The notes below the pieces were generated by a model, which saw only the letters and a program-made list of their open reading frames with translations, was not told the DNA's origin and ran no database searches. From Candidatus Omnitrophota bacterium (GTDB lineage Bacteria; Omnitrophota; Gorgyraeia; Duberdicusellales; 4484-171): 64,000 bases of DNA. The stretch covers positions 99,651 through 163,650 of the forward strand of contig JBAZGN010000005.1 in assembly GCA_041652815.1 (NCBI GenBank). The letters are read 5' to 3'. The position numbers were made by a program, and so were the translations under genes. Position 1 is the stretch's first letter; every line of letters starts with the position of its first letter. Shown here one piece after another: positions 3,818 through 51,202 of the stretch.

Positions 3818-3855
3818 CTTGTTTACTGTATATACCCCTTGCGTCCAGATACCAG

Positions 3856-3897
3856 GGGCTACGGGGTTAAGTCTCCGCCTACGGCGGAGAATTAAGG
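3856..3897. repeat. Family H module (GGGGTTAA-N3-TCCGCCTACGGCGGA-G-AATTAAGGAG) that carries the RBS of the downstream gene.
   Basis: Near-identical module at 47786-47830, also directly before a start codon. Confidence 0.5.
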
Positions 3898-3904
3898 AGT
3901 ATAA

Positions 3905-6900
3905 ATGGACAAGGACTATATGCTTCGCGATGATGGAAGTTTTATTATAAAGAATTATAACAGCAAACATCCATTTTCAAATTTTCTTCCCGGCGTAGCC
4001 GGTGCCTGGGGAGTACCGATGTGGGTTTTTTACGTAAACCGGGCACAGGGAGTTATAAGTTTCGGAGTCAAAGATAAAGATCACGCTATAACCGAATTTT
4101 TCCCGGCGAATAATGCTTATTGTTTTGCGCCGCTTGTAGGCTTTCGTACATTCCTCAAGATAAACGATAAAATTAATTATGAGCCATTTCGTGTAATTTC
4201 AGATTATGAACGTAACGAGGAGATGGTTATAAAAAGCTCATCTTTCAGCATACGCAAAAATAATCCGGAACTTGGCCTTAATTTGCGTATTAAATATTTT
4301 ACGCTTCCAAATAGCGCTGCGGGGGCACTGGTACGTGTTTTATCCGTTAAAAATATTTCCGACAAGGAAATAAAGCTTGAGGTTTTAGACGGGTTACCCA
4401 AAATAATACCCTTTGGATTAAACAACGTGTTGCTCAAAGATTTAGCAAGGACTATGGAAGCATGGATGCGCGCTGAAGTTCATAATAACCTGGCATTCTT
4501 CCGTATGATTGTTGACCCCAAAGATTCAAGCCAGACAAAATATATTGATGGCGCTAATTTCGAATACGCTTTTTATGAAGAAAACGGTAAAAAGGTATCA
4601 CCTTATATAATAGTAGACCCTACTGCAATTTTTGCGCAGGATACTTCCTATTCTGTTCCAGTTAATTTTTATGCAAGCAGTTTCAAAACTCCACTTACAC
4701 AAATTATGGCAGGGAAAACCCCGTGCGCTTTTAACCATTTTACATGGAGTATTCTACCGGGAGAGGTTAAAATATTTTACAGTATGTTTGGTTCTTCTTT
4801 TAAATCGCAGCTTATCAAAGATTTTGTTTCGGGAATAGATGCTAACTTTTTAAAAGAAAAAGAAAAAGAAAATAAAAGTATTATTGAAAATATTAAAGAT
4901 AATTGTTTTTCTGTATGTTCTTCAGACAGGCTGAAAGAGTATGTGAAATGTACTTATCTGGATAATGTTTTGCGCGGCGGTTACCCTTATAAATTTACGG
5001 ATAAAAACAGTTACTATATTTTTTCCCGCAAGCATGGTGACCTGGAAAGAGATTATAATAAGTTTAAGTTACTACCTTCCTATTTTAGTGAGGGCGAGGC
5101 AAATTATCGTGATATAAACCAGAACCGCAGGGTAGATTTATTCTTCAATCCGTCCCTTGGAAAATCAAATATAGTGTATTTCCTAAACCTCATAAAGATT
5201 GACGGATATAATCCGCTGGTAGTAAAAGGCGAAAGGCTGTTTTTTAACCAGGCAGCAGCGCGTAATCTATTAAAACAATTCGGTATAGCTGATAAAAAAA
5301 TAATTTCTCTGATGGTTTCAGGCTTTCATCTTGGTGATTTCTTTAAAATCCTTAAAGAAGAAGGTATTGTTGTCAAGGCGCGAGAAAAATTAGCCGCGGA
5401 ATTAGTTACGAAAGCGCAAAGAGAGCCTCAGGCAACTCATGGCGAAGGGTACTGGATAGATCATTGGCGCTATAACCTTGATTTAATCGAAAACTTCCTT
5501 TATTTTTATCCCGATAAATTAGATGACCTGTTTTTAACCAAGGAATATTATTTTTGGGATGATGAGTGGCGCGTTAAGGAACGCAGCCATCGTTTCCATT
5601 TAAAAGATGGTAAGGTTTACCAGTGGCACTCTGTTGAAGAAGTGGGAGAGAAAAAAGATGTTATAGCTTCGCGCGCAAAATTCGCTAATTTTCTGCGTGA
5701 TAAAAAAGGAAATATTTATACTACAAGCCTTATAGAAAAACTTTTAACTCTTATTCTCAATAAAGCTGCGACTTTAGATCCTGATGGTGTAGGCGTTGAA
5801 ATGGAGGCGGATAAACCAGGCTGGTGCGATTCTCTAAATGGCCTTCCTGCTCTTTTTGGCTCTTCAATATGCGAAACTTTTGAATTAAAGCGCGCCTGCC
5901 TTTTGCTGAGTGAAGCAGCATCAGCTTTAAACAAAAAAGGTACAGCTAATTTTAATTTGGCAGAGGAAGTGTATGAATTTTTAGAAGGGCTTGAAGGGCT
6001 GACTAAGAAATACTCTAACCTGCCGGCAAAACAGCGTGATATGTTCTGGTGGGAAAAATCCAATTCCCTGAAGGAAAGTTTCCGGAAAACAACTTTTGCG
6101 CAGATTAAAGGCAAACAGATAAGCATTCCCGGCCTGCGGCTAGAAAAATTCTTAAATTCGCTGGTTAATAAATTGGATAACGGTATCGAAAAAGCTCTGG
6201 ACAGGGATACAGGAATTTATTCTACGTATTTTAAGTATAGCGTAGAAAAATTTCATGCCAAAGGAAAAATAATTAAGCCGCTTAAGTTTAAAAAAGAGCC
6301 TCTCGCGCATTTCTTGGAAGGTTCGGTTCATGCTCTACGCACGCAAAAAGAAAGTTCTATTTATAGTGCGTTAAAGAAAACAGTTATTTTCGATAAAGTA
6401 TTACGGATGTACCGTCTCAACGCGTCTTTAGAAAAAGAACCTCTTGAAATTGGAAGAAGCAGGATTTTTACACCGGGCTGGCTTGAGAATGAATCCATCT
6501 GGCTGCATATGGAATACAAATACCTTTTGGAAGTGCTTAAAAAAGGTTTGTATGAAGAATTCTACGAAGATTTTCATAATTGCGCGGTATGTTTCTTCGA
6601 CGCGCAAAAATACGGAAGAAATATCCTGGAAAACTCTTCTTTTATTGTAAGCAGCGCTAATTGCGATAAAAATTTATGGAACAAAGGTTTTGTCGCGCGC
6701 TTAAGCGGTGCAACTGTTGAGCTCCTGAATATGTGGATTGTAATGTGCCTGGGTAAGTCGCCATTTAATATTAACGGTAATGGCGAACTAACTCTTAAAT
6801 TTTCCCCTATTCTCAAGTCAGAGCTTTTTACCAAGCAGGAGCAGAAAATCGAATTTAGAGGCAAAAGCGAGATTATTGAAAAAGATTGTTTCGCTTTCAA

Positions 6901-7096
6901 GCTATTTTCAAAAACTCTGGTTGTCTACCACAATCCAAACAGAAAAGATACTTTCAGTAAAAGCTGCAGCGTAAATAGAATAGCGGTAACCGATGGTGCC
7001 AAAAAATATGCAATAGAGGGCAGCAACATAAAATCACCATTGAGCCAGAGAGTAAGAGAGGCTATTATTGACCGTATAGACGTTTATTTTAGTTAA
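3905..7096 (+). CDS. Large conserved protein (1063 aa). It may be a divergent glycoside phosphorylase / (alpha/alpha)6 glycosidase (GH94-like).
   Basis: The N-terminal beta-sandwich-like pattern resembles GH94/GH65 N-domains, and the GWCDSLNG block resembles the GH94 DWND..N acid motif. The assignment is weak. Confidence 0.35.
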   Translation: MDKDYMLRDDGSFIIKNYNSKHPFSNFLPGVAGAWGVPMWVFYVNRAQGVISFGVKDKDHAITEFFPANNAYCFAPLVGFRTFLKINDKINYEPFRVISDYERNEEMVIKSSSFSIRKNNPELGLNLRIKYFTLPNSAAGALVRVLSVKNISDKEIKLEVLDGLPKIIPFGLNNVLLKDLARTMEAWMRAEVHNNLAFFRMIVDPKDSSQTKYIDGANFEYAFYEENGKKVSPYIIVDPTAIFAQDTSYSVPVNFYASSFKTPLTQIMAGKTPCAFNHFTWSILPGEVKIFYSMFGSSFKSQLIKDFVSGIDANFLKEKEKENKSIIENIKDNCFSVCSSDRLKEYVKCTYLDNVLRGGYPYKFTDKNSYYIFSRKHGDLERDYNKFKLLPSYFSEGEANYRDINQNRRVDLFFNPSLGKSNIVYFLNLIKIDGYNPLVVKGERLFFNQAAARNLLKQFGIADKKIISLMVSGFHLGDFFKILKEEGIVVKAREKLAAELVTKAQREPQATHGEGYWIDHWRYNLDLIENFLYFYPDKLDDLFLTKEYYFWDDEWRVKERSHRFHLKDGKVYQWHSVEEVGEKKDVIASRAKFANFLRDKKGNIYTTSLIEKLLTLILNKAATLDPDGVGVEMEADKPGWCDSLNGLPALFGSSICETFELKRACLLLSEAASALNKKGTANFNLAEEVYEFLEGLEGLTKKYSNLPAKQRDMFWWEKSNSLKESFRKTTFAQIKGKQISIPGLRLEKFLNSLVNKLDNGIEKALDRDTGIYSTYFKYSVEKFHAKGKIIKPLKFKKEPLAHFLEGSVHALRTQKESSIYSALKKTVIFDKVLRMYRLNASLEKEPLEIGRSRIFTPGWLENESIWLHMEYKYLLEVLKKGLYEEFYEDFHNCAVCFFDAQKYGRNILENSSFIVSSANCDKNLWNKGFVARLSGATVELLNMWIVMCLGKSPFNINGNGELTLKFSPILKSELFTKQEQKIEFRGKSEIIEKDCFAFKLFSKTLVVYHNPNRKDTFSKSCSVNRIAVTDGAKKYAIEGSNIKSPLSQRVREAIIDRIDVYFS

Positions 7097-7180
7097 AGTT
7101 CTTAAAATAGTAAAATTTCCCTAAAAAGCTTAAAAATCCTTAGATTTATTGCCTTTTTTTGATTTTTTTAAGAAAATTCT

Positions 7181-7215
7181 TGACAAGTCAGGTTTTCTTT
7201 GCTAAAAATGAAGTA
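7181..7215 (+). promoter_or_regulatory. Putative sigma70 promoter upstream of the outer-membrane protein gene.
   Basis: TTGACA, 17 nt spacer, TAAAAA. Confidence 0.3.
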
Positions 7216-7489
7216 GTTGAGCCTGTAAAAATTTTCATTTAAGGCTCATCCTGAGCGCAAGCGAAGGATCTCATTGACAAATTAATTCGGTTATACCATC
7301 CACGGACGGTCTTAAACTGGCAAAGAAGGAGGTGGGGAATAAAATTAAAAAGCCAAGGCTGTCAAAATCATGGATGATATAACTATAGATTGGTAATAAC
7401 AAGGCATTCCCTGTAATTAAGGGGTAGTTAACCTTGTGTGTACATATATATTTTACTTTATACCAAATAGGATCAAAAGGAGGGAACTA

Positions 7490-8893
7490 ATGAGTAAGAG
7501 ACTATTAATTATGGCAGCGATTTTGCTTTTAAGCGTTCCTGCATTTGCTGCTGTAGAAAATATCAAAGTAAGCGGTGATATCAACGAACAGGCAGTAGGC
7601 AGAGATCTTTCTTTGGGCGGCGTGAACAGAGCAGCCGGAGATGGAAGCCCTATGGATTCAGAGAGCTATCTTCTTTCCCAAGTGAGGATAAGATTTGATG
7701 CTGATTTAACAGAAAATGTTTCCGGTGTTGTTCGTTTAATCAACGAAAGAACATGGGGAAACACAGGTACAAGCGATGCGGATACAACGTATGGTGACAA
7801 CGAACACATCGCGTTGGATCTTGCTTACATTGAACTGAAAGAATTTTTGTATCAGCCTCTAAGTATTACAGTAGGCCGCCAGAATCTTCGTTATGGCAGT
7901 GCGTTAATCGTAGGCGATCCTGATACAAACATGACAGTTGAAAGTTCATCTGTCACCAACTATCGTTTTGGCGATTTGTCTTTGAGAAAATCATTCGATT
8001 CAGTAAAAGCTGTTCTTGATTTTTCTCCATGGACAATTGATGCTATTTATGCCAAAATCAATGAACCACACACATACATTAGAGATAATGTAGATCTTTG
8101 GGGTATCAACGCTAATTACCAGTGGGGTTCTTTTGACGGAGTAACTGAAGCTTATTATTTCGGTGCACAAAACAACAGAGATACTTTATCTTATGCCAAA
8201 GTTCTTTCGCAGCCGCCTGAAAACCAGGATATTACCCAGGTAATTGGTGCAAGAACGCAATTTAATCCATTTGAAAAAATGACCCTTGGATTAGAAGGTG
8301 CTTATCAGTTCGGTGATGTGCAGGCTGCGGCAGTTGCTGCAAATCCTGCTAGGCACATAAGCGCATTTGCGATTGAAGCAATGGCTGAATACAGATTTAT
8401 GACCAAGTATAACCCAACACTTGGACTGACCTATGTTTATTTAAGTGGTAATGATGACATAGGCGCAAACGGCAATAGTTATCTAACTGGTTGGGATCCG
8501 ATGTTTGAAGACCAGAGTTTGGGCGAAATTGCCAATGTGCTTTTCCCAAACAGCAACATTCAAGCTGCAAGAGTTAATGGTTCCGTTATGCCGAGGGAAG
8601 ATATTACCCTTGGTGCTTCTTACACTTGGTTGAGGCTAGCAGACAAGCTAACTGAAGCAGATAACTATCCATCATACACTCCACCACTTGGTTACTATTC
8701 CGCAAACACTTATAGCATTAACAACCTAGAAGGCTACCTTGGCAGCGAAGTTGATGCTTTCGCAACTTATGATTATACGGAAGATGTTCAGCTTAAACTT
8801 ACTGGCGCATGGTTTATACCAGGCGATTTCTTTGCAGACAACAATAATGATGTGGCATATTCAGTAAGAGGCGGAGTCAACCTTAACTTCTAA
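7490..8893 (+). CDS. Outer-membrane beta-barrel protein (porin-like).
   Basis: Signal peptide (LLLSVPAFAA), alternating amphipathic beta-strand pattern, C-terminal ...GGVNLNF with terminal Phe; GGAGGG RBS. Confidence 0.6.
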   Translation: MSKRLLIMAAILLLSVPAFAAVENIKVSGDINEQAVGRDLSLGGVNRAAGDGSPMDSESYLLSQVRIRFDADLTENVSGVVRLINERTWGNTGTSDADTTYGDNEHIALDLAYIELKEFLYQPLSITVGRQNLRYGSALIVGDPDTNMTVESSSVTNYRFGDLSLRKSFDSVKAVLDFSPWTIDAIYAKINEPHTYIRDNVDLWGINANYQWGSFDGVTEAYYFGAQNNRDTLSYAKVLSQPPENQDITQVIGARTQFNPFEKMTLGLEGAYQFGDVQAAAVAANPARHISAFAIEAMAEYRFMTKYNPTLGLTYVYLSGNDDIGANGNSYLTGWDPMFEDQSLGEIANVLFPNSNIQAARVNGSVMPREDITLGASYTWLRLADKLTEADNYPSYTPPLGYYSANTYSINNLEGYLGSEVDAFATYDYTEDVQLKLTGAWFIPGDFFADNNNDVAYSVRGGVNLNF

Positions 8894-8915
8894 GTTAATT
8901 ACTTAAGTTAATTAA

Positions 8916-8950
8916 CCCCGTTTCGGGTAACCGAAACGGGGTTTTTTATT
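8916..8950 (+). terminator. Rho-independent terminator.
   Basis: CCCCGTTTCGG-GTAA-CCGAAACGGGG stem then TTTTTTATTT. Confidence 0.75.
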
Positions 8951-9117
8951 TATAGTATCGTGTTTGAATCCAACGCTAATAAAACTGTGATGTGTCATTA
9001 ACGGAGTTTACTTTTAATAAAATTTAAGTATAATTACTAAAGGATATAAATTAATAACTTTTATTATCAAGCTCTCAACGGGCACGTTAAGGATAATTCA
9101 ACCATATAGGAGGTTAG

Positions 9118-9447
9118 ATGGAACAAATTCAATTGCCGGAAGAAGAGATTCGTGACGGTGCGCCTTTTGCTGCTTTATCTTATGTTTTTTTCCTGTGGAT
9201 TTTTACTTTCATCTGGAAGAAAGAAAACCGTTTTGCACATTTTCACGCAAAGCAGGGAATTGCTATGTTTGTCGGAGAGATAGGAGTTGGAGTATTGTCG
9301 CTTATGCCTTTTATAGGTGTAGTATTTTACGCAGCCGGGCTTTTACTTTTTCTTTTCCTTTCTCTTTACGGAATTTATTACGCTTTAACCGGCAGAATGA
9401 AACGCATACCTTTTATAAGTAATGTGGCAGACAGGTTTATAGTTTAA
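9118..9447 (+). CDS. Small membrane protein (DUF4870-like).
   Basis: FHAKQ motif between TM helices; GGAGG RBS. Confidence 0.45.
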   Translation: MEQIQLPEEEIRDGAPFAALSYVFFLWIFTFIWKKENRFAHFHAKQGIAMFVGEIGVGVLSLMPFIGVVFYAAGLLLFLFLSLYGIYYALTGRMKRIPFISNVADRFIV

Positions 9448-9653
9448 TGAGCACATCATTTTTTCAAGCCCTGACCGCCCTGACTGCCCGCAAGGGCAGG
9501 CGTGGCAGGCGTGGCGCAGGAAAAATGATAGTGCGAATTAACCCCGAAGCGCTTCGGTTAAATTTCGCAGAAATTTAACCGATATACAGGCGCAAGGGGT
9601 ATGTATAGTAAAACATGGTATAGAATTTCAAATGAAACCTTCTAAATAAAAAA

Positions 9654-9953
9654 ATGAGAAGTTTTATAAGAGTATGGGAAGAAGTTAATATACAGGAAAT
9701 TGAGAAAACTCTTATTGTTATCGGAGAATTATCAGCAGAATGTTTCTCTTGCCATAAAATTGGGATAGATTCAAAATCGCACGTATGCCCAGCCTGCGGC
9801 ACAAATTTTAAATATGTCGGTTTTAGAAGAAGGGTAGAGGGTGGATATTTGCATAGGATAAAAGAAGAAATGCCTTATGCGATTTTTATTGATTTCGATG
9901 ATTTCAAAAAAGCTGTAGGCAAGAAGGAAGCCAGAAAACTATTGGATTTATAA
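9654..9953 (+). CDS. Hypothetical small protein with a Zn-ribbon.
   Basis: CFSCH..CPACG cysteine pairs; no known family recognised. Confidence 0.35.
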   Translation: MRSFIRVWEEVNIQEIEKTLIVIGELSAECFSCHKIGIDSKSHVCPACGTNFKYVGFRRRVEGGYLHRIKEEMPYAIFIDFDDFKKAVGKKEARKLLDL

Positions 9954-10108
9954 TTATAGGTAAATATGGGTGAGGGTAGAAAAACTTTCGGTCCAACAAA
10001 TAAAAAATATTGTGACCTTCACAAGAAATCGTCCCGCTGCAGAAAAGGAAAAAAGAAATAGCCGCTTTCAATTTCATAGTTTTTTAAATAAATCTATCCT
10101 TATTGTTC

Positions 10109-10182
10109 GCCCCGGTGGCTCAATTGGATAGAGCATCTGGCTTCGGACCAGAGGGTTGCAAGTTCAATTCTTGCTCGGGGCG
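10109..10182 (+). tRNA. tRNA-Arg (anticodon TCG).
   Basis: Cloverleaf folded by hand: 7-bp acceptor GCCCCGG/TCGGGGC, anticodon loop CTTCGGA, T-loop TTCAATT. Confidence 0.8.
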
Positions 10183-10218
10183 TTTGAGTTGTTTGGTAGG
10201 TTTACTTGATATTTTATC

Positions 10219-10307
10219 GGAGAGGTGCCGGAGCGGTTTAACGGGTACGCCTGGAGAGCGTAAGTCTGTCGAAAGACGGACCGAGAGTTCAAATCTCTCC
10301 CTCTCCG
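10219..10307 (+). tRNA. tRNA-Ser (anticodon GGA), long variable arm.
   Basis: Acceptor GGAGAGG/CCTCTCC, anticodon loop CTGGAGA, long variable arm, T-loop TTCAAAT. Confidence 0.8.
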
Positions 10308-10580
10308 TTGTCCTACCTATCGCGAGAAAACATCCAACCAGAAATGGGGATGTTTTCTCGCAACATATAGGAAAAGGACAACGGATTCCGGCGAAGCACC
10401 GCCTGAGCCGGAATATCGTTAATAATATTTCGTAAGCGTAAACCATCAAACCGAAGGGGATGGTTTTCCACAACATCTAGGAAAAGGACAACGGATTCCG
10501 GCGAGCCGACCGAGGACGTAATGTCCGAGGGAGTGCCAAGGCCTCCGGATGAGGCTCCGTCCGAGCCAGAATATAACCCT
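10308..10580 (+). repeat. tRNA-Ser-linked structured element, copy 1, with a degenerate internal tandem duplication.
   Basis: 57 nt identical to 14626-14682, including a 15-bp perfect hairpin CGCGAGAAAACATCC..GGATGTTTTCTCGCA. AGGACAACGG pairs back onto the tRNA 3' trailer CCGTTGTCCT. A second conserved ~100 nt domain (GGATTCCGGCGAG...GCCGGAAT) follows. Confidence 0.6.
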
Positions 10581-14537: not shown

Positions 14538-14625
14538 GGAGAGGTGGCTGAGCGGTTGAAAGCGCCGGTCTTGAAAACCGGTGTGGGCCTTGTGTCCACC
14601 GTGAGTTCAAATCTCACCCTCTCCG
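14538..14625 (+). tRNA. tRNA-Ser (anticodon TGA), long variable arm.
   Basis: Acceptor GGAGAGG/CCTCTCC, anticodon loop CTTGAAA, T-loop TTCAAAT. Confidence 0.8.
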
Positions 14626-39753: not shown

Positions 39754-41295
39754 ATGAGTAAAGATACAATCTTAATCCTCGATTTTGGTTCACAATACAC
39801 ACAGCTTATTGCGCGCAGAGTGCGTGAGCTTAAGGTCTACAGTATTATTGAGCCTTGCAACATAAGCCCGGCAAAAATAAAGGAGATAAATCCTAAAGGG
39901 ATTATTCTTTCAGGAGGCCCCCACAGCGTTTACGAGAAAGGCGCGCCTTCGCTTAACAAGGAAATACTTAAGCTAAAAGTGCCGATTTTAGGCATCTGTT
40001 ATGGGATGCAAATTTTGGTAAAAACTTTAAACGGCACAGTTAAAGAAGCAAAGAAGCGGGAATATGGAAGAGCTGAAGTATATATCGATAATCACAAAGA
40101 TTTATTTTTCTCTTTACCTTCAAAAATAGTTTCCTGGATGAGCCACACCGACCAGGCAGTTAAGTTACCCCGGGGCTTTGAGGCCCTCGCGCATACGCTG
40201 CATACCGAATTTGCCGCGATAGGAAACAAAAAAGAAAAAATTTACGGCGTTCAATTCCACCCCGAGGTAGCGCATACAGAGCACGGTACGCAAATTATTT
40301 CAAATTTTCTTTTTAGAATTTGTGAATGTTTTGCAAGCTGGCAGCTTGAAGATTTTATCCAAAGCGAAATTAAAGCCATACGCGAAAAAACCGCAGGCAA
40401 AAACGTAATCTGCGGTTTAAGCGGAGGAGTGGATTCTTCTACCGCGGCAGTTTTAATTAATGAGGCGATAGGTAAAAAACTTAAATGTATTTTTGTAAAT
40501 AACGGGTTACTTCGCAAAAACGAGGTAAAACAGGTGCTTTCTGTATTTCGCGGCAACTATAAGATAGACCTTCGTTACGTTGATGCTTCAAATTCTTTTC
40601 TCACCAAGCTTTCCGGCGTAACTGACCCGGAAAAAAAGAGAAAAATAATCGGCCATGAATTTATAAGAGTTTTTGATGCCGAGGCGCATAAAATAAAGAA
40701 TGTGGAATTTCTCGTGCAGGGAACATTGTATCCCGATGTTATAGAGTCAGTTTCCTTTTTCGGCGGTCCTACTTCAAGGATAAAATCTCATCATAATGTC
40801 GGAGGGCTTCCTCTTAATATGAAACTTAAGCTTATTGAGCCTTTCCGCCAGCTTTTTAAAGACGAGGTAAGAGAAATTGCAAAAATCCTGAAATTGCCAA
40901 AGGCCATAGTCGGCAGGCATCCGTTTCCCGGACCCGGGCTGGCGGTAAGAATAATTGGAGAAATCACAAATGAACGTTTAAGGGTTTTACGCGAAGCAGA
41001 CAGCATATTCGAAGACATTATAAAGAAACATAATCTTTACGATGGCATCTGGCAGGCATTTTGCGTGCTGCTGCCGCTTAAAACCGTTGGAGTTATGGGA
41101 GATAAGCGCACCTATGAAAACGTTTGCGCAATAAGAGCAGTAAACAGCTTAGATGGTATGACTGCTGACTGGTCGAAGATTCCCGTAGACGTCCTTGGCG
41201 AGATTTCAAACAGCATAATCAATAAAGTCCGGGGAATTAACCGCGTAGTTTTTGATATAAGTTCAAAGCCTCCCGCAACGATTGAGTGGGAATGA
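39754..41295 (+). CDS. guaA: GMP synthase (glutamine-hydrolysing).
   Basis: GATase ILILDFGSQYTQLIARRVREL, catalytic GICYGMQ, PP-loop SGGVDSS, C-terminal dimerisation domain. Confidence 0.9.
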   Translation: MSKDTILILDFGSQYTQLIARRVRELKVYSIIEPCNISPAKIKEINPKGIILSGGPHSVYEKGAPSLNKEILKLKVPILGICYGMQILVKTLNGTVKEAKKREYGRAEVYIDNHKDLFFSLPSKIVSWMSHTDQAVKLPRGFEALAHTLHTEFAAIGNKKEKIYGVQFHPEVAHTEHGTQIISNFLFRICECFASWQLEDFIQSEIKAIREKTAGKNVICGLSGGVDSSTAAVLINEAIGKKLKCIFVNNGLLRKNEVKQVLSVFRGNYKIDLRYVDASNSFLTKLSGVTDPEKKRKIIGHEFIRVFDAEAHKIKNVEFLVQGTLYPDVIESVSFFGGPTSRIKSHHNVGGLPLNMKLKLIEPFRQLFKDEVREIAKILKLPKAIVGRHPFPGPGLAVRIIGEITNERLRVLREADSIFEDIIKKHNLYDGIWQAFCVLLPLKTVGVMGDKRTYENVCAIRAVNSLDGMTADWSKIPVDVLGEISNSIINKVRGINRVVFDISSKPPATIEWE

Positions 41296-41298
41296 AGA

Positions 41299-41390
41299 TA
41301 GAAGCGGATACACGCGGATTTATACGCGGATAAACGCCAGCGAGTTCGCTTGCGTGAATCCGCGTCAATATCCGCGGATATCCGCTTCTA
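41299..41390. repeat. Family B palindromic element, copy 3.
   Basis: TAGAAGCGGATACACGCGGAT ... ATCCGCGGATATCCGCTTCTA, between guaA and dnaE. Confidence 0.75.
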
Positions 41391-41407
41391 TTATTAAGCA
41401 TATAAAT

Positions 41408-44400
41408 ATGGCTCACAGTGATTTTATACACCTTCACGTTCACACCCAATACAGCCTTCTTGACGGCGCGTGCCAGCTCAACCGCCTTATAGAAAAAGCC
41501 GTTAAATTCAAACTACCCGGCCTTGCCATAACCGACCACGGAAACCTTTTCGGAGCGGTAAAATTCTACGAAGAATGTATGGACGCAGGCATCAAGCCGA
41601 TAATCGGCTGCGAGGTCTACGTTGCACCGGACTCCCGCTTTAAAAAAGAATACAAAAACGAAGACGCCGGCAATTACCATCTTATACTTCTTGCCAAAGA
41701 CGAGCAGGGTTATAAGAATCTAATTAAGCTTGTAAGCCTTGCGCATTTAGAAGGCTTCTATTATAAGCCAAGGATAGATAAAGAAATATTAAGCCAGCAT
41801 AACAAGGGTTTAATCGGCTTAAGCGCCTGCCTTAAAGGAGAAATTGCATCAGCGATAATAGCCGATGACATTAAAGGCGCGTATAAAAAATGCGATGAAT
41901 ATTTGCAGATTTTAGGCAAAGGCAATTTTTACCTTGAAATTATGGAAAATGGCCTTAAGGAACAGGCAAAAGCAAATAAACATCTTCTAAAAATTTCAAA
42001 AGAACTGGATGTGCCGGTGGTAGCGACAAACGATATTCATTACCTTGAAAAAAATGAATCTTTCGCTCACGAAGTGCTTCTGTGCATACAGACGCAAACC
42101 ACGTTAAATGACCCAAACCGTTTTAAATTTAACAGCGATACTTTTTATTTCCGCAGCCCCGATGAAATGAAAGCTATATTTAAGGAAGCCCCCGAAGCGA
42201 TAAAGAATACCCTTGAGGTAATGCAGAAGTGCAATTTGGTTATGGATTTTTCCAAGATTCATCTTCCGCGTTTTCCGATTCCCGAGAATGAAACCGAAAA
42301 CGGGTATTTGCAAAAGATAGTCACTGAAAATTTGCCTAAACGCTACAGCGAAGTTACTGATGAGGTAAATAAGCGCCTTGAATATGAACTGGGAGTAATC
42401 AATAGCACGGGCTTTTCCAGTTATTTTTTGATTATCTGGGACCTTATAAAATATGCCAAAGAAAACAATATTCCGGTTGGCCCGGGCAGGGGCTCTGCTG
42501 CAGGAAGCATTGTAAGTTTTCTTCTCGGTATAACCGATGTTGACCCGCTTAAATACGACCTTCTTTTTGAAAGGTTTCTTAATCCCGCGCGTATTTCAAT
42601 GCCTGATATCGATATGGATTTCTGTTATGAAAAGCGCTCGCGGGTTCTTGAGTATGTAGGCAAAAAATACGGCGAAGCCAACGTTGCCCAGATTATTACT
42701 TTCGGAACAATGCTTGCCCGCGCAGTGGTTAGAGACGTAGGCCGTGCCATGGGCCACAGCTATGCCGATGTCGATAAAATTGCCAAGATGATTCCGGTTA
42801 TTGTCGGCCACCAGGTAACTTTAAAAGAAGCCCTTTCTCAAAGCCCCGAGCTTTCGCAAGTTTATCAATCGGATGCCGGGATAAAACGCTTAATCGATGT
42901 CGCCATACAACTTGAAGGCCTGTCGCGCCACGCCTCAACTCATGCCGCAGGAGTAGTTATTTCCGATAAGCCTTTAATGGAAAGAATACCTTTAATCAGG
43001 GGAGCGGAAGAAGAAATAGTTACCGGCTTTGATATGGAATCTCTTGAAAAGACCGGATTGCTTAAAATGGATTTCCTGGGCCTTAAAACCCTGACCGTAA
43101 TAGATTCGACCGTAAAAATAATCAAAAGAACCAAGGGCGTAGAGGTGGACATTACGAACTTGCCTCTCGATGATAAAAAAACTTTTTCTCTGCTTAGCCA
43201 GGCAGATACAATCGGCGTGTTCCAGCTTGAAAGTAGGGGCATGCGCGAGATATTAAGAAAGCTTATTCCCACCCGCTTTGAAGATTTAATCGCAGTCTTG
43301 GCATTATACAGGCCCGGGCCCTTGGGTAGCGGAATGGTCGATGATTTTATCGAAAGAAAACAGGGCAAAAAACCCGTAAGCTATGGCCATCCAAAGCTTG
43401 AATCAATACTTAAAGAAACCTATGGGATTATCCTTTATCAGGAACAAACTATGCAGATTGCTTCCAAGCTTGCAGGCTTTAGCTTGTCACAGGCAGATTT
43501 GCTACGAAAAGCCATCGGTAAAAAGATTCCCGAAATAATGGAAGAACAACGCAACTTATTTGTAGAAGGAAGCAAAAAAAATGGCGTATCGCAAAGAATC
43601 GCCACACAGATTTTTGATTTAATAGATTATTTTTCCGGCTACGGCTTCAACAAGTCTCACAGCACTGCTTATGCGCTTATTTCCTATCGCACTGCGTATC
43701 TTAAAGCCAATTACCCGGTTGAGTTTATGGCAGCACTTCTAACAAGTGAACGCACCAATACCGATAAAATCGTCGAATACGTAAATGAAGTTAATCATAT
43801 GGGAATGAAAGTGCTTCCGCCGGACATAAATACCAGCTTTGCGAATTTTACGGTTACTGATGAAAAAAATATCAGGTTTGGGCTCTTGGCGATTAAAAAC
43901 GTAGGCACCACTGCCTTGGATAATATAATTGAAATCAGGAAACAGAAAAAATTCGATGATTTTTTTGAATTCTGCGACCGCGTTGACGGCAGAGTTGTAA
44001 ATAAAAAAGTCCTGGAAAGCCTTATAAAATCCGGCGCAATGGATAGTTTTAAACTTAAGCGCGCGCAAATGACAGCTATGCTCGATAAAATTTTAGCAAA
44101 AACTACAAAAAAAGAAGACCCTTCGCAGTTTCTGTTATTTACCGCGCCAAAGAAACAGCAGGAAATACCTGATGTTGAAGAGTGGCCGCTCTTACAAATC
44201 TTAAGCTTTGAAAAATCTCTGCTTGGCATCTACGTAACCAGCCACCCGTTATATTCCTATGCAAATACTGTAAAGCATTTGCATCGGCAGGAAATTATTT
44301 CTCTCTATGAGCAGGAGTCGCGCGAAGAAGTAGTCATTTGCGGCATAGTCGAAAAAGCGCGCATTATAACTACGAAAAGAAGCGGCGAACGTATGGCAAT

Positions 44401-44815
44401 TTTAAAAATTGAAGATGAGACTTCAACTGTCGAGGTTTTTGTCTTTCCCAGGCTTTTTGCCGAAGCTGCTGCCGATATCAAGGAAAAAAGCATAATCGTT
44501 ATAAAGGGTAAACTTGAATCCAAAGAAAGAGCGCCCAAGATTTTAGCCGCTAAGATTATCCCGATTGAGCGTATTTTTGACAATATCAAAGGCCTTAATA
44601 TCGCCATAAACCAGGAGAAATTTCCTCTGGCGAATCTAAAAACCATTTTTTTAAATAATAGAGGAACAACCCCGGTTGTTTTTGCCTTTCGAAACGCAAA
44701 GCTTAATGGTGTTAAAATTAAAACCGCCAATCAATTCTGCCTAAAACTTACTGAAAACGCCCTAAAGGAAATTGGTGCGTTAATAGGGGATGAGAATCTT
44801 TCGTTGAGCCTCTAA
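41408..44815 (+). CDS. dnaE: DNA polymerase III alpha subunit.
   Basis: PHP N-terminus FIHLHVHTQYSLLDGA, palm and fingers blocks, OB fold. The annotated upstream ORF part is read-through of the repeat. Confidence 0.9.
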   Translation: MAHSDFIHLHVHTQYSLLDGACQLNRLIEKAVKFKLPGLAITDHGNLFGAVKFYEECMDAGIKPIIGCEVYVAPDSRFKKEYKNEDAGNYHLILLAKDEQGYKNLIKLVSLAHLEGFYYKPRIDKEILSQHNKGLIGLSACLKGEIASAIIADDIKGAYKKCDEYLQILGKGNFYLEIMENGLKEQAKANKHLLKISKELDVPVVATNDIHYLEKNESFAHEVLLCIQTQTTLNDPNRFKFNSDTFYFRSPDEMKAIFKEAPEAIKNTLEVMQKCNLVMDFSKIHLPRFPIPENETENGYLQKIVTENLPKRYSEVTDEVNKRLEYELGVINSTGFSSYFLIIWDLIKYAKENNIPVGPGRGSAAGSIVSFLLGITDVDPLKYDLLFERFLNPARISMPDIDMDFCYEKRSRVLEYVGKKYGEANVAQIITFGTMLARAVVRDVGRAMGHSYADVDKIAKMIPVIVGHQVTLKEALSQSPELSQVYQSDAGIKRLIDVAIQLEGLSRHASTHAAGVVISDKPLMERIPLIRGAEEEIVTGFDMESLEKTGLLKMDFLGLKTLTVIDSTVKIIKRTKGVEVDITNLPLDDKKTFSLLSQADTIGVFQLESRGMREILRKLIPTRFEDLIAVLALYRPGPLGSGMVDDFIERKQGKKPVSYGHPKLESILKETYGIILYQEQTMQIASKLAGFSLSQADLLRKAIGKKIPEIMEEQRNLFVEGSKKNGVSQRIATQIFDLIDYFSGYGFNKSHSTAYALISYRTAYLKANYPVEFMAALLTSERTNTDKIVEYVNEVNHMGMKVLPPDINTSFANFTVTDEKNIRFGLLAIKNVGTTALDNIIEIRKQKKFDDFFEFCDRVDGRVVNKKVLESLIKSGAMDSFKLKRAQMTAMLDKILAKTTKKEDPSQFLLFTAPKKQQEIPDVEEWPLLQILSFEKSLLGIYVTSHPLYSYANTVKHLHRQEIISLYEQESREEVVICGIVEKARIITTKRSGERMAILKIEDETSTVEVFVFPRLFAEAAADIKEKSIIVIKGKLESKERAPKILAAKIIPIERIFDNIKGLNIAINQEKFPLANLKTIFLNNRGTTPVVFAFRNAKLNGVKIKTANQFCLKLTENALKEIGALIGDENLSLSL

Positions 44816-44818
44816 TTA

Positions 44819-44873
44819 AGGTTACGAAAGTTACGAGGGTTACGCAGGTTACGAAGGTTACGGAAGTTACATT
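44819..44873. repeat. Family A array: six tandem 9-mers of GTTACGNNG (GGTTACGAA type).
   Basis: Strict 9-bp periodicity, directly after the dnaE stop. Confidence 0.75.
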
Positions 44874-44948: not shown

Positions 44949-44977
44949 TTGACAAATCTCCAAATATATTGTATATA
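44949..44977 (+). promoter_or_regulatory. Sigma70-like promoter for the NTase module.
   Basis: TTGACA, 17 nt, TATATA; about 40 nt upstream of the ATG at 45017. Confidence 0.55.
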
Positions 44978-45016
44978 TTAATACAGAGGGTTGTATAAAA
45001 ACATACAATAAATTGT

Positions 45017-45586
45017 ATGGAATTACGCATAAATAAACAAAAATTGCTTGAAAATATTGGCCTTTGGGATGGTTACTTTAAGCGCAAGGTAAGCCTTATT
45101 GCTTGTGGCGGCACAGCCCTTACGCTTTTAGGGGTTAAGGATTCAACCAAGGACATTGATTTAATCGTTCCTAAAGAAGGTGAGTATGATTATTTGATAA
45201 AGGCTTTAAAGCAATTAGGTTATAAACCGGTAACCGGTGTAGGCTGGGCGAGAGATAGGGGTTTTATCTTTGATTTATTTAAAGGCAATAAAATTCATAC
45301 AACGCAGTTATTGGAATCGCCCCTTGATAATGGAAACAATATGTTGGTTAAAGAGTTTAACCATATCTATTTAGGCGTGCTTAACTATTATGATATCATT
45401 ATCAGCAAATTATTCCGTTCAACTTCCGTGGATATAGAGGATTGCTTGTTATTGGTAGAAAATAAGCGTAAAGATATAGATTTGGAAAAGTTAATTTCGC
45501 GTTTTAAGGAAACTGCAAGCTTCGATGTTTCCGAGGAAAAGGTAAATAAGAATTTAGAATATTTTCTTAAACTTATTGAAAAATAA
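45017..45586 (+). CDS. Pol-beta-superfamily nucleotidyltransferase, AbiEii/DUF1814-like (short).
   Basis: IACGGTALTLLGVKDSTKDIDLIV matches the hG[GS]..x(9-13)..DhD NTase core and the KGGTAL...S.DLDF signature of AbiEii-type toxins; a later acidic residue (DIIISK) is present. Confidence 0.55.
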   Translation: MELRINKQKLLENIGLWDGYFKRKVSLIACGGTALTLLGVKDSTKDIDLIVPKEGEYDYLIKALKQLGYKPVTGVGWARDRGFIFDLFKGNKIHTTQLLESPLDNGNNMLVKEFNHIYLGVLNYYDIIISKLFRSTSVDIEDCLLLVENKRKDIDLEKLISRFKETASFDVSEEKVNKNLEYFLKLIEK

Positions 45587-45588
45587 CT

Positions 45589-46263
45589 ATGGATAAAAAA
45601 GTTTTGCTTCAACAATTACATGCGTTAGGTTTCCCGTTATTAGAGCCGGATTCTTTTCTTAGCGCCGACTTGGTTTTGTGTGAGGTATTTAAAAGCAAAG
45701 ACCCGCGTCTCTGGGAAGGCTTTCCTGTTGTTTTAGCTAATGCTAATCAAAAAGGATTATTTAACTATCAAAGCCTCGCCCGCTCTTTAAAAACGCAATC
45801 GGAAAAATCGCAGCTTAATTCCCTTCTTGTGATGTCATTTGCCCTTTATGAATTTTATAACCTTAAATTCTATTGGGTAAAAGAACTTTTAAAAGCTTTG
45901 CCTGCCGGTTATAAAAATGAATTAGATTTATTTTTAAAAAAACTTAAAAACGATGAAGATTTTAAAGTAAACAATGTTACTATGTCAGCGCAAAGGCTTA
46001 AAGGCGCTTTTAATAATTATTTTAGCCATTTCCAATCAGCATTAGGAGATTTATTAGCGCAAAAACAGGAATTTGGCCTTGAATACGCCCTCTCACAGGT
46101 ATTTTCACCTAAACAAAAAGAATTATTTTTGAAAAAATTAAAAGGCGAAAAACTTACCAAAACCGAAAAAGAATACTTCTCCCGCACAGTTAAAAAGAAG
46201 GTTCAAGCTCTTGCCAATACCGAACTTCATCAATTTTGCAATAAGCTTCTTGACCAGCTATAA
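45589..46263 (+). CDS. Uncharacterised 224-aa partner protein of the NTase (no domain recognised).
   Basis: Starts 2 nt after the NTase stop (operonic); helical, K/L-rich; no match to HEPN Rx4-6H. Confidence 0.4.
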   Translation: MDKKVLLQQLHALGFPLLEPDSFLSADLVLCEVFKSKDPRLWEGFPVVLANANQKGLFNYQSLARSLKTQSEKSQLNSLLVMSFALYEFYNLKFYWVKELLKALPAGYKNELDLFLKKLKNDEDFKVNNVTMSAQRLKGAFNNYFSHFQSALGDLLAQKQEFGLEYALSQVFSPKQKELFLKKLKGEKLTKTEKEYFSRTVKKKVQALANTELHQFCNKLLDQL

Positions 46264-46290
46264 CGTACCTAATTATCTATATCAATTTTA

Positions 46291-46432
46291 GGTTACGAAG
46301 GTTACGAAGGCCAACAGGCCACCCTGTTGGGTAGGTTACGAATGTTACAATAAATCAAGTGATTTAAATGTAACCTTCGTAACTTCCGTAACCTGCCTGC
46401 CGGCAGGCAGGCATCCGTAACCTTCGTAACCT
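46291..46432. repeat. Family A palindromic element (GGTTACGAA arrays in inverted orientation with inner GC hairpins).
   Basis: TAGGTTACGAAGGTTACGAAGG ... TGTAACCTTCGTAACTTCCGTAACC ... CCGTAACCTTCGTAACC. Inner hairpins are CCAACAGG-CCAC-CCTGTTGG and CCTGCCTGCC-GGCAGGCAGG. Confidence 0.75.
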
Positions 46433-46473
46433 AAATTGTAATTCGTGGCAATTCGTCTTTAAAAAGAACCACC

Positions 46474-46617: not shown

Positions 46618-46959
46618 ATGAGATTTATAGTCTTGTTATTGTGTTTTTGTTTATTACCCATTCATGTGTTTTCTGCAGATGAGAAAAATACTATAAAGGT
46701 TCAAGAGTTAAATCGGGAAGAAGCAACTCAGATTTGGACTAAAACCGTATCAGAAGATGTGGCTGTAATAAGTTCAGATTTACGTACAATTACACCGGAA
46801 ACTCCTAAAGAAAAAGTAAATGAAATTTTAGAGGAAGCTTTGAAGAAAGTTCAAAAAATGCGAACAGAGGCAGCCAAACGAGGAGTTATTTTAGAAGGTT
46901 TTTCCATAAATTTAGCATTTCCACCATCGATGACAGTAGATTTTAAGTTTAAAGATTAA
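46618..46959 (+). CDS. Small secreted protein of 113 aa.
   Basis: AGGAGG RBS; signal peptide LLLCFCLLPIHVFSA. Confidence 0.45.
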   Translation: MRFIVLLLCFCLLPIHVFSADEKNTIKVQELNREEATQIWTKTVSEDVAVISSDLRTITPETPKEKVNEILEEALKKVQKMRTEAAKRGVILEGFSINLAFPPSMTVDFKFKD

Positions 46960-47042: not shown

Positions 47043-47687
47043 GTGTGCATGTTTGATTTTTTTAAAAACATTAGACGATATGTCAGAAGCAAAGATGCTT
47101 GTTTGCTTTATATGGTTATTGCTATCGTAATAATCCTTAGTTGTGTTTGTTTTGTAATCGGCAAATTCCTAGGTATTAACAAAGAGTTAGCAACAATTAT
47201 TGTGTTGTTTGCTACTTTAATGGCAATAATCATTTATACCTGGAAAACTTGGCAATATAAAGATCTTGTTTGCGAACAAATCCTATTAGACATAAGGCCT
47301 CTTGTAATTTTTGAATGCTATCACAGAACAATTAGAAATGTGGGTAAGGGGATAGCAAAGGGCATTTGGATTGAAAAAATTCCCATAAATTGCTTTAGAT
47401 TGCTCGGTATAGAAAATTCAGAGGCAAAATTTGTTATTTTTGATAAGGTTGGTTGTTTAGCAGACAAAGATTCATCCCCATACCTTAAGTTTAATCTTTT
47501 CGATGAAAAAGGAACAAAAATTACTGACCCCAATATCAGCGCTCTCATTGCGCGCACGTTGGATGACACCGGTAATTCCTTAGAGAAATTAAAGGTAGTA
47601 ATAGGATATTATGATTTAAAAAATAATGTTTATAGGACTCACATGAAAAACATAAATGGTGTATTTCAAGTTGATCATATCGTATAA
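47043..47687 (+). CDS. Membrane-anchored hypothetical protein.
   Basis: One or two N-terminal TM helices and a soluble C-domain; no known family. Confidence 0.4.
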   Translation: MCMFDFFKNIRRYVRSKDACLLYMVIAIVIILSCVCFVIGKFLGINKELATIIVLFATLMAIIIYTWKTWQYKDLVCEQILLDIRPLVIFECYHRTIRNVGKGIAKGIWIEKIPINCFRLLGIENSEAKFVIFDKVGCLADKDSSPYLKFNLFDEKGTKITDPNISALIARTLDDTGNSLEKLKVVIGYYDLKNNVYRTHMKNINGVFQVDHIV

Positions 47688-47836: not shown

Positions 47837-48256
47837 ATGAATAGTTCATTATTTCTCGCAAGATTATTAGGCCCTTTTATTGTGCTAATTAGTATCAGCC
47901 TGCTAATTAATCTGAAGACTTACCGGCAGATTGTAGAAGGGTTTTTAGAGAACACCGCCCTTATCTACGTGACCGGTTTAATTACTTTTGTTGCGGGGCT
48001 GGCGATTGTGATTTTCCATAATTTATGGGTTGTTGATTGGAGAGTGATAATCACGGTTTTTGGTTGGATTACACTTATTAAAGGCGTGTGGCTTACAGTC
48101 TTTCCGGCTAATGCGGTTAAAATCAGCAAGGTATTTGTAAAGAATATTAAATTTGTTGCAATTCCCTGGATTGTGATGTTTGCGTTGGGGCTTTTTTTGG
48201 TTATGCAGGGTTATTTACCGCAACCAAGAATACACGCACCCGCTATGCAAATGTAG
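47837..48256 (+). CDS. 4-TM membrane protein (hypothetical).
   Basis: Four hydrophobic helices; RBS supplied by family H. Confidence 0.45.
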   Translation: MNSSLFLARLLGPFIVLISISLLINLKTYRQIVEGFLENTALIYVTGLITFVAGLAIVIFHNLWVVDWRVIITVFGWITLIKGVWLTVFPANAVKISKVFVKNIKFVAIPWIVMFALGLFLVMQGYLPQPRIHAPAMQM

Positions 48257-48409: not shown

Positions 48410-49315
48410 ATGAAGGTTTTTAGGCTAAGCGATAAAGAGAAACTGCAGAAAATACTTAAAGCTACCGGGGTTTCGCGTTCCGAGCTTGCCCGTCAGCTTG
48501 AGGTAAATTATAAGGCTATTTACCGCTGGCTGGATTGTGGAATTAACCCGCATCCGCGTCAATCCAAAGATATAGACCAGTTATTTAAAAAATACGTTGA
48601 TTTACGCGAAGTGGTCTTGTCTTTACGTAAAAGCGCGAAAGAACCCATAAAGCTTCTTAGGGAGAATAACAAATTACGCGAGAAATTTTTCCTTGAGATG
48701 ACTTATAACTCTAACGCCATAGAGGGCAGCCGGATGACGGTCAAAGAAACCGAGCTTGCCTTTGAGGGTAAAAAGGTTAAAGGCAAAGAGCTATTTGAGG
48801 TGCTGGAAGCGGTAAATCACAAAAATGCGTTAGAGTTTTTGCTGGAGAACATAAAACCTAATTTTAAAATTGATGAACAATACGCCCTTAAACTGCATTC
48901 AATAATAATGTATAATTTTAACAACAAGCTTCCGGGTAAATACCGGACCGGCCACGTAAACCTGACCAATACCGAAAAAGAGCTGCCTTCTGCCCAGGAA
49001 GTTCCTTTAAGGGTGGGTAAGCTGCTAAAAAATATAAATAATTATGGCAAAGATGCCATAGGCAAAATCGCTCTTGACCATTATGAATTCGAAGCAATCC
49101 ACCCATTTTTTGATGGAAACGGCCGCGTTGGCCGGCTGATTACGCTTACTCAAACCTTAAGCAAAGGGTTTGCTCCGGCGCTTCTAAAGGTTGATGACCG
49201 TTATAAATATTATATGGCTTTAGGCAAGGCGGATTTTGGTGATTATAAAAACATTATCCAAATGATTTGTGATAGCATAATAGAGGGTTATAATTTATTC
49301 TTTCAAGCAATTTAG
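48410..49315 (+). CDS. Fic-family protein (AMPylase-type) with an N-terminal HTH.
   Basis: Canonical Fic motif HPFFDGNGRVGR; N-terminal wHTH-like segment (RSELARQLEVNYKAIYRWL). Confidence 0.8.
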   Translation: MKVFRLSDKEKLQKILKATGVSRSELARQLEVNYKAIYRWLDCGINPHPRQSKDIDQLFKKYVDLREVVLSLRKSAKEPIKLLRENNKLREKFFLEMTYNSNAIEGSRMTVKETELAFEGKKVKGKELFEVLEAVNHKNALEFLLENIKPNFKIDEQYALKLHSIIMYNFNNKLPGKYRTGHVNLTNTEKELPSAQEVPLRVGKLLKNINNYGKDAIGKIALDHYEFEAIHPFFDGNGRVGRLITLTQTLSKGFAPALLKVDDRYKYYMALGKADFGDYKNIIQMICDSIIEGYNLFFQAI

Positions 49316-49393: not shown

Positions 49394-49456
49394 GGTAACC
49401 TTCGTAACTTTCGTAACCTACGTAACCTTCGTAACCAGAGCCAACAGGCTCTTCTA
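49394..49456. repeat. Family A array (GGTAACCTTCGTAAC units, inverted orientation) plus a GC hairpin.
   Basis: Five tandem 9-mers GTAACNTNC, then AGAGCCAACAGGCTCT. Confidence 0.7.
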
Positions 49457-51077: not shown

Positions 51078-51096
51078 AAAAATATTTTGATATTCA

Positions 51097-51202
51097 GGTT
51101 ACGAAAGTTACGAAGGTTACGCAGGTTACGAATGTTACAATAAATCAAGTGTTTCAAGTGTAACTTTCGTAACATTCGTAACTTCCCGTAACATCCGTAA
51201 CC
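51097..51202. repeat. Family A long palindrome: five GGTTACGAA 9-mers, a ~25-nt centre, then five inverted 9-mers.
   Basis: GGTTACGAAAGTTACGAAGGTTACGCAGGTTACGAATGTTACA ... TGTAACTTTCGTAACATTCGTAACTTCCCGTAACATCCGTAACC. Confidence 0.8.

Follow-up and report, generated by a model that had tools for sequence, protein, structure and literature searches.

Nucleotidyltransferase (NTase) toxins of the MenT/AbiEii kind, which have only recently come to be understood, stop translation by extending tRNA 3' ends, and to our knowledge every characterised member is encoded downstream of its antitoxin, the antitoxins themselves being diverse. A locus in a metagenome-assembled genome (MAG) of Candidatus Omnitrophota raises the question of whether this order can be reversed. 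In the stretch of 64,000 nucleotides analysed here, termed the window, a short gene with an NTase signature (ORF1) is followed almost immediately by a gene for an unannotated helical protein (ORF2). An initial sequence-only reading left two options: an NTase paired with its partner in a new way, the antitoxin gene coming second, or an AbiEii gene in decay.

The features of the locus are collected in Table 1. The lengths of the two reading frames and the 2-nt gap given by the sequence-only reading agree exactly with the coordinates: the ORF1 stop codon TAA (45584-45586) is followed by CT and then by the ATG of ORF2. The corresponding proteins, MCK9614890.1 and MCK9614889.1 at NCBI, both carry the label "hypothetical protein", and the genes are nevertheless real, since ORF1 has 1176 relatives in a protein database search and ORF2 has 2322 at E<=1e-3 in a collection of 5.8 billion proteins, at near-constant length. 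The surroundings in the window are housekeeping genes, namely dnaE, guaB, guaA, HU, hisS and aspS. No gene is encoded between dnaE and ORF1, and hence there is no upstream winged helix-turn-helix (wHTH) antitoxin of the COG5340/AbiEi type in that interval, which holds instead the dedicated promoter that had been proposed to be the only element upstream of ORF1. From its sequence organisation, the span 44949-46263 (~1.3 kb) is a self-contained two-gene cassette, as the borders described below suggest.

Table 1. Features of the putative cassette and its upstream neighbour, in window coordinates
Feature	Position	Strand	Description
dnaE	41282-44815		Upstream neighbour of ORF1
Cassette promoter	44949..44977	+	-35 TTGACA 44949-44954, 17-nt spacer, -10 TATATA 44972-44977
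Operator-like palindrome O1	44969..44986	+	TTGTATATATTAATACAG; overlaps the -10 box; 1 mismatch to TTGTAT-N6-ATACAA
Operator-like palindrome O2	44991..45008	+	TTGTATAAAAACATACAA; 18 bp, exact match, 22 bp after O1
O3 half-site TTGTATG	45013..45019	+	22 bp after O2; holds the ORF1 start codon
ORF1	45017-45586	+	189 aa, ATG start; DUF6036-family nucleotidyltransferase, MenT1-like fold, candidate toxin
ORF2	45589-46263	+	224 aa, ATG start; basic, all-helical, unannotated family, candidate antitoxin/repressor

ORF1 matches Pfam DUF6036 (PF19502, NTP_transf clan) with 36.6 bits, above the gathering cutoff of 23.6 bits (E = 5e-9), and alone covers positions 18-153 of the 164-position profile. The same family is precomputed on 119 of 120 ORF1 relatives among the matches listed, and relatives are nearly uniform in length and retain ~65-70% identity across many species. 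NCBIfam and PADLOC contain no match for ORF1, PHROGs matches are weak and lead to families of unassigned function, and a literature search found no mention of DUF6036 or PF19502. The Pol-beta-type core comprises G31-G32-T-A-L35 and D46-I-D48-L49. It had been written as GGTAL x13 DIDL in the sequence-only reading; the core is present, but 13 residues is the count from G32 to D46, while the gap between GGTAL and DIDL is 10. The third acidic residue, D86, lies on the next long strand, and relatives have only D or E at this position. Across 45 relatives, G31-G32, D46, D48, K131, R134, D139 and D142 show full or almost full conservation, and S43 and T44 are invariant. In the predicted model these positions lie on the strands and helices where they would be expected.

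The predicted fold of ORF1 has as its top structural match MenT1 of Mycobacterium tuberculosis (8an4; 165 residues aligned, score 13.2), followed by ANT(2'') (11.5), TM1012 (10.6), LnuA (10.4), MenT3/TglT (10.3) and MenT4 (9.5). ORF1 alone spans the whole 195-residue MenT1 fold, and sequence searches of the PDB detect no similarity to the MenT1 chain. The functional residues of MenT1 are T39, D41, D43, K137 and D152, of which T39 is the auto-phosphorylation site (PMC10435456, PMC11375011). Matched by motif position only, ORF1 T44-x-D46-x-D48 mirrors MenT1 T39-x-D41-x-D43, and K131 with D139/D142 sit in the helix pair after the β-sheet, in positions like those of the MenT1 Lys/Asp motif; these residues may therefore be equivalent, as judged from motif position. 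Motifs I-II (hG[GS]...DxD together with another carboxylate, the third) and III (a Lys-containing helix) of AbiEii/DUF1814, as defined for AbiEii/MenT (PMC10435456), are present in ORF1. The AbiEii C-terminal motif IV domain is absent, ORF1 ending after four short helices, and neither ORF1 nor ORF2 matches PF08843 (AbiEii/DUF1814) even at E<=1. The resemblance to AbiEii claimed at the outset is consequently right for fold and motifs, with MenT1 as the best structural match, and wrong for the Pfam family, which is DUF6036/PF19502.

ORF2 is predicted to be all-helical and is basic (pI 9.3). Its relatives form 373 clusters at 50% identity in a representative set of 1.84 billion proteins and share ~55-60% identity across many species. 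Among 150 members listed, full-length proteins have ~200-245 residues (the longest 267), without additional domains in any of them. Conservation is strongest in a C-terminal lysine-rich region (residues 172-214, FSPKQKELFLKKLKGEKLTKTEKEYFSR.VKKK..ALAN..LH), and there are invariant tyrosines, for example Y196 in KTEKEYFSR. No significant Pfam family was found with ORF2, with 60 diverse relatives or with the isolated C-terminal region, and searches of NCBIfam, PADLOC, PHROGs and PDB sequences returned nothing. Taken over both ORF1 and ORF2, the PDB sequence searches yielded hits at chance level only (Rb pocket, E = 0.054; IcmQ, 0.62; LrpA, 0.069; AbiGII, 0.19). Fold and domain searches revealed no recognisable DNA-binding domain, and the structural search gave no convincing fold relative, with no HEPN fold and no likeness to an AbiEi structure. 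The Rx4-6H motif of HEPN proteins is likewise absent, the spacings being x11 for R136-H148 and x14 for R199-H214. Comparisons of ORF2 likewise revealed no resemblance to an AbiEi_4 protein, to the upstream helix-turn-helix (HTH) partner of haloarchaeal DUF6036 proteins or, in a profile comparison, to the extra C-terminal part of the long haloarchaeal DUF6036 proteins. The description of ORF2 as a helical partner without a family, and of the pair as something other than MNT-HEPN, was borne out: profile and fold comparisons identify ORF2 as neither AbiEi, nor HEPN, nor the missing half of AbiEii, and no well-known housekeeping family was matched.

These comparisons bear directly on the idea that the cassette is a broken AbiEii/DUF1814 gene, ORF1 representing its N-terminal and ORF2 its C-terminal half. 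ORF1 is indeed short, with AbiEii-like N-terminal motifs, and lies a mere 2 nt from ORF2. Against this stand the missing PF08843 match of either protein and the hhalign comparison of both profiles with an AbiEii protein (L001:4115-5029), to which neither aligns (probability <1%). ORF1 by itself fills the DUF6036 profile and the complete MenT1 fold, and ORF2 is unlike the C-terminal extension of the longer haloarchaeal DUF6036 proteins. In addition, two separate intact ORFs, each with its own start, persist in >100 loci at 45-94% identity. The AbiEii pseudogene was rejected on the missing PF08843 and hhalign matches and the conserved two-ORF structure, and its probability is judged to be vanishingly small. 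Of the two proposals made from the sequence, the degraded AbiEii thus fell, while the new NTase-partner arrangement is upheld by the separate ORFs, the failure to align with AbiEii and the non-housekeeping nature of ORF2.

The pair recurs in hundreds of Omnitrophota genomes, and at least 348 of 185,579 species genomes were matched, a lower bound obtained with strict patterns. Co-occurrence, which the sequence-only reading had put forward as a check, is pronounced, as an ORF1 homologue lies directly upstream of ORF2 in ~75 of 84 ORF2-anchored loci, mostly from species-representative genomes. The intergenic gaps are mostly -14 to +2 nt; in one locus (L079) an IS21-type element lies between ORF1 and ORF2. 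Pairwise distances of ORF1 and ORF2 are correlated (r = 0.85; Mantel 0/999; 109 distinct pairs). At the nucleotide level, conservation sets in sharply with the -35 box and extends to the stop codon of ORF2, and outside these borders the sequence is unconserved, with no conserved third gene, flanking repeats or att-like site. The most shared neighbour, a Fic-like gene, occurs in 9 of 84 loci, and the closest relatives of the present cassette sit elsewhere: by dCTP deaminase/carB (L167) or MFS transporters (L169), compared with dnaE here. Frequent neighbours in other loci are AbiEi/AbiEii pairs, NTP_transf_2 genes with a partner, restriction-modification genes and Fic. No phage, viral-contig or plasmid copy of this subfamily was found in INPHARED, IMG/VR or PLSDB, the last of which holds only distant haloarchaeal DUF6036 genes. 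The generic traits of type II-like toxin-antitoxin (TA) modules, which are small adjacent co-oriented genes, co-inheritance and a variable genomic location, are all displayed. The cassette is best explained as autonomous and horizontally mobile, as far as these genomic patterns indicate.

Both proteins are more strongly conserved than is usual in mobile modules, and the window places the pair among dnaE, guaA, hisS and aspS, which would suit an Omnitrophota housekeeping pair such as an RNA-maturation enzyme with its cofactor. Such a pair would not be expected to change location even among closest relatives, to occur in so small a share of species genomes, to lose ORF1 repeatedly (see below) or to have conserved DNA that stops exactly at the cassette borders. 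The housekeeping pair, which we consider very improbable, was rejected on these four grounds.

The 5' border of the cassette coincides with its promoter. The TTGACA/TATATA pair is not listed by a simple promoter scan because position 6 of the -10 hexamer is not T; the -10 consensus in relatives is TATACT/TATATT. Relatives share this arrangement of -35 and -10 boxes in 111 of their 130 distinct upstream regions, far more often than chance would give. Superimposed on this promoter is an array of operator-like repeats, which was absent from the sequence-only reading. O1 is an 18-bp palindrome of the TTGTAT-N6-ATACA(A/G) type with the -10 box inside, and the starts of O1, O2 and O3 are 22 bp apart. 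The chance expectation for TTGTAT-N6-ATACAA at one mismatch, from a scan of the window, is 0.27. Of 166 loci, 127 have the exact palindrome, which lies nowhere but immediately 5' of the ORF1 start, and the array occurs nowhere else in the window or in these loci. Across 103 in-register relatives the arms are 99-100% invariant and the 6-nt spacers variable. TTGTATG ends 93 of the 130 distinct upstream regions, the ungapped consensus of which reads ctTgacaaa-N-ataTaTTGTATa.ttTaaTACA.a.aaTTGTATaaa..tATACAAataaTTGTATG.

In RNA, the right arm of O2 can pair with O3 (CAUACAA/UUGUAUG), hiding the ORF1 AUG, and the leader folds with -7.7 kcal/mol (z = -2.5). No Rfam family matches the leader region, and the 103 in-register sequences contain no compensatory changes in the arms, which are too invariant for covariation to speak either way. 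Part of the function of the repeats could lie in the RNA, where a hairpin that hides the start codon is possible. Because the left arm of O1 precedes the expected transcription start, where it can act only as DNA, a role in DNA is favoured. Invariant half-sites with free spacers, a period of two helical turns and one site largely ahead of the expected transcription start fit a dimeric DNA-binding protein, and the array as read from sequence would suit such a protein bound along a single helical face, in the manner of TA promoters under autoregulation. The two genes also differ in translation signals, since a Shine-Dalgarno (SD)-like 4-mer precedes 88% of ORF2 starts vs 6% of ORF1 starts in relatives; in this window ORF2 itself, like ORF1, has no SD-like site.

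Loss of the two genes is one-sided. An intact ORF2 follows all 58 intact ORF1 genes that have at least 700 nt of contig downstream, whereas in 8 of 78 ORF2-anchored loci ORF2 is intact and ORF1 is deleted, frameshifted or absent (0/58 vs 8/78; Fisher p = 0.011), the eight loci on which the count is based all coming from MAGs. ORF1 has undergone near-complete in-frame deletion in L008 and L032, large internal or N-terminal deletion in L012, L018 and L058, and frameshifts, which are possibly assembly errors, in L053 and L056, while in L059 ORF2 stands alone behind a gene for dCMP deaminase. Promoter and operators are kept in the five loci with ORF1 deletions. That a toxin is never found without its antitoxin whereas orphan antitoxins occur is a criterion for TA modules, and the ORF1 and ORF2 counts follow this pattern. 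Together with the SD asymmetry, the decay is what would be expected, on comparative sequence grounds, if ORF1 were a toxin and ORF2 a protective protein made in greater abundance.

Both patterns argue against a reversed assignment of roles. In type VII MNT-HEPN systems the NTase gene precedes that of the helical partner, and by analogy ORF2 would be the toxin and ORF1 an antitoxin that nucleotidylylates a conserved tyrosine (Y196 or Y144). The gene order here is the same, ORF2 has its invariant tyrosines, and three of 60 ORF2 relatives give sub-threshold matches to HEPN_Swt1 or HEPN_Apea (E 0.003-0.01). The cassette thus resembles MNT-HEPN in having the NTase first and an all-alpha partner second. 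It differs in that the HEPN partner has the Rx4-6H motif and the HEPN fold, neither of which is found in ORF2, that ORF1 is not a minimal MNT and that the decay points to the NTase as the harmful member. Reversed roles are accordingly improbable.

The main rival to a TA module is a pair that is useful and not addictive, composed of a non-toxic enzyme and a regulator or specificity subunit. ORF1 would then nucleotidylylate a small molecule, as do ANT(2'') and Lnu, or a cellular RNA or protein, and ORF2 would serve as transcription factor or as a partner that binds the substrate. Once its enzyme is lost, a dedicated regulator should decay as well, and the retention of ORF2, with promoter and operators, after ORF1 deletion in five loci, as well as its persistence in two loci where ORF1 is frameshifted and in one that has lost ORF1 entirely, therefore speaks against such a pair. 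So do the presence of ORF2 beside all 58 intact ORF1 genes, the enrichment of TA and defence genes in the neighbourhoods, the 2-nt or overlapping spacing and SD asymmetry typical of TA pairs, and the K131/R134/D139/D142 helix, which resembles motif III of MenT/AbiEii (described in PMC10435456). The benign pair is considered unlikely, though less so than reversed roles.

The cassette is thus probably a toxin-first, autoregulated TA or defence module (possibly of the abortive-infection type) of the MenT/AbiE-like kind, with a new antitoxin/repressor family, as suggested by its sequence features. We infer that ORF1 is toxic. By analogy with MenT1, MenT3 and MenT4, it would add nucleotides to tRNA 3' ends and so block aminoacylation and translation. 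ORF2 would keep ORF1 harmless by binding and occluding the active site or, alternatively, by inducing auto-phosphorylation of the invariant S43/T44 beside D46, as MenA1 does on MenT1 T39. ORF2, alone or with ORF1, most likely represses the operon, and repressor dimers on the 22-bp-spaced TTGTAT-N6-ATACAA sites would extend over the -10 box and the first transcribed nucleotides up to and including the start codon. The toxin may be kept scarce relative to its partner through an ORF1 start that has no Shine-Dalgarno sequence and can be buried in the leader hairpin, and ORF2 would be better translated through the Shine-Dalgarno-like site found in most relatives. A more far-reaching version is offered tentatively, as something that may well not hold: an undescribed NTase TA/defence family in which the 224-aa partner, its fold without a solved relative, would both bind the operators and silence a MenT1-like enzyme by a novel route. 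The ~1.3-kb promoter-to-stop unit would then have spread horizontally through Omnitrophota and into neighbouring phyla. Candidate modes of silencing are induced S43/T44 auto-phosphorylation or nucleotidylylation of the invariant Tyr196 of ORF2, the latter coupling toxin activity to derepression.

The general concept of NTase TA modules is already established, and the Omnitrophota cassette is best explained as working like the MenAT/AbiE kind, from which it differs in gene order, NTase size, identity and fold of the partner, and the operator array. In M. tuberculosis all four MenT toxins are encoded downstream of their antitoxins, of which one is MazE-like and has 68 residues, another belongs to COG4861 and the remaining two are COG5340/AbiEi-like (PMC7450476, PMC10435456, PMC11375011). 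In MenAT1 (Rv0078B-Rv0078A), the 68-aa antitoxin MenA1 is encoded upstream and has no DNA-binding domain (PMC10435456, PMC11375011), whereas here an unrelated 224-aa partner lies downstream. MenAT1 does not autoregulate its transcription (PMC11375011), in contrast with the conserved operator-like array described above, and MenT1 is of the DUF1814 type, whereas ORF1 scores as DUF6036 and not as PF08843. The type IV AbiE systems of Streptococcus agalactiae and Lactococcus share with the cassette a Pol-beta NTase in which G-G/S...DxD is joined by another acidic residue, the third, and by a Lys helix, the mobile two-gene format, and a partner thought to neutralise the toxin and to autorepress through promoter repeats, as is predicted here. 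They differ in that AbiEii has ~290 residues and a C-terminal motif IV domain, compared with the 189 residues of ORF1, and in that the wHTH protein AbiEi (COG5340) is encoded upstream, so that the order is reversed in the cassette, where ORF2 is unlike both the AbiEi_4 protein and the AbiEi structure.

Toxin-first order is familiar from the type II operons higBA, mqsRA and hicAB, in which the downstream antitoxin doubles as a repressor acting on promoter palindromes and has the better translation signal. The cassette resembles them in placing the candidate toxin gene before that of the candidate antitoxin; their toxins are RNases as opposed to an NTase, and no protein is common to the two. If the proposed reading is true, the cassette would bring toxin-first architecture to the NTase toxin class and add a partner family without a recognisable fold or domain. 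If ORF2 neutralises by a new mechanism, the model of antitoxin-induced auto-phosphorylation in NTase control would be extended. The clean, phylum-wide operator motif makes the regulatory hypothesis directly testable, and the cassette offers a handle on the mobile and defence gene content of Omnitrophota, a phylum known mainly from metagenomes.

The cassette would also provide the first functional hypothesis for Pfam DUF6036, a family with other two-gene modules on haloarchaeal plasmids (for example NGM29_RS19530/19525 and HACJB3_RS16940/RS20025). The NTase core is shared (hhalign probability 96%), and these distant modules, which count in favour of the proposed reading, resemble the cassette in their two-gene format, with 4-nt overlaps, or in place of it a fusion to an HTH domain. 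Their NTases are longer (280-310 residues) and encoded downstream of an HTH/MarR-type protein of ~170-316 residues, whereas ORF1 is shorter and comes first. Three of the upstream partners are annotated as HTH or MarR and two as hypothetical, and one further haloarchaeal DUF6036 NTase is fused to an ArsR domain.

In most relatives of the two-gene cassette formed by ORF1, the candidate nucleotidyltransferase (NTase) toxin, and ORF2, the candidate antitoxin, the C-terminal "..KKEGL..." tail of ORF1 encodes a Shine-Dalgarno-like AAGGAAGG for ORF2. The ORF1 of the window falls in a sub-clade of 189-aa proteins from which this usual tail is missing; in contrast with those relatives, the junction at 45584-45591 presents no Shine-Dalgarno-like site for ORF2 and a 2-nt gap replaces the overlap. 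A larger separation is observed in the related locus L079, where the ORF1 and ORF2 homologues lie 2.5 kb apart through insertion of an IS21-like element, the pair being otherwise intact. This element comprises an IstA-like transposase of 488 aa and an IstB-like ATPase of 250 aa, both assigned from their sequences.

A gene encoding a Fic-domain protein with an HTH-like N-terminus is located 2 kb downstream of the cassette. Before it come three small ORFs without annotation, and two of these appear to be membrane-associated. Pfam annotates Fic genes near the cassette in loci L002-L004 and L167 from other genomes, and a Fic-like cluster, assigned by sequence motif and without Pfam confirmation, is found close to it in 9 of the 84 loci fetched through ORF2 homologues. 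The recurrence of Fic-type genes beside the cassette suggests that they share toxin-antitoxin (TA) or defence islands. In L001, located on a 612-kb Omnitrophota contig, the cassette lies within a dense island (3516-10345) that contains AbiEi_4/AbiEii, a second AbiEii pair, DUF6788/NTP_transf_8, RadC, NYN and an MmeI-type restriction-modification gene, such that four different NTase-type two-gene modules adjoin one another.

A 9-bp unit, GGTTACGAA with its variants, is repeated in tandem in arrays that are confined to intergenic spacers, and has 22 matches in the window against 0.22 expected; tandem repeats were also examined with TRF. These arrays bracket the NTase cassette as well as the block at 46.4-49.4 kb. 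The array directly 3' of ORF2 constitutes a long imperfect palindrome of ~145 nt, with arms at 46287-46312 and 46410-46435 displaying 92% complementarity. The arrays matched no family in an Rfam search and may represent a genome-specific REP-like element or terminator. Different short repeats occupy a comparable place in other loci, such as AGGTTGTC in L034.

Coordinates of features in the window and in locus L079
Feature	Source	Position	Strand	Detail
IS21-like element	L079	3603-5814		between ORF1 and ORF2 homologues
Fic-domain protein	window	48410-49315	+	Pfam Fic, E = 6.6e-18; HPFFDGNGRVGR motif
Three small ORFs	window	46618-46959, 47043-47687, 47837-48256		upstream of Fic gene
9-bp arrays	window	44818-44870, 46287-46435, 49395-49436, 51096-51201, 1362-1376		
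Three tRNA genes	window	10109-10307 and 14538-14625		Rfam RF00005

The three tRNA genes of the window bear no relation to the cassette.
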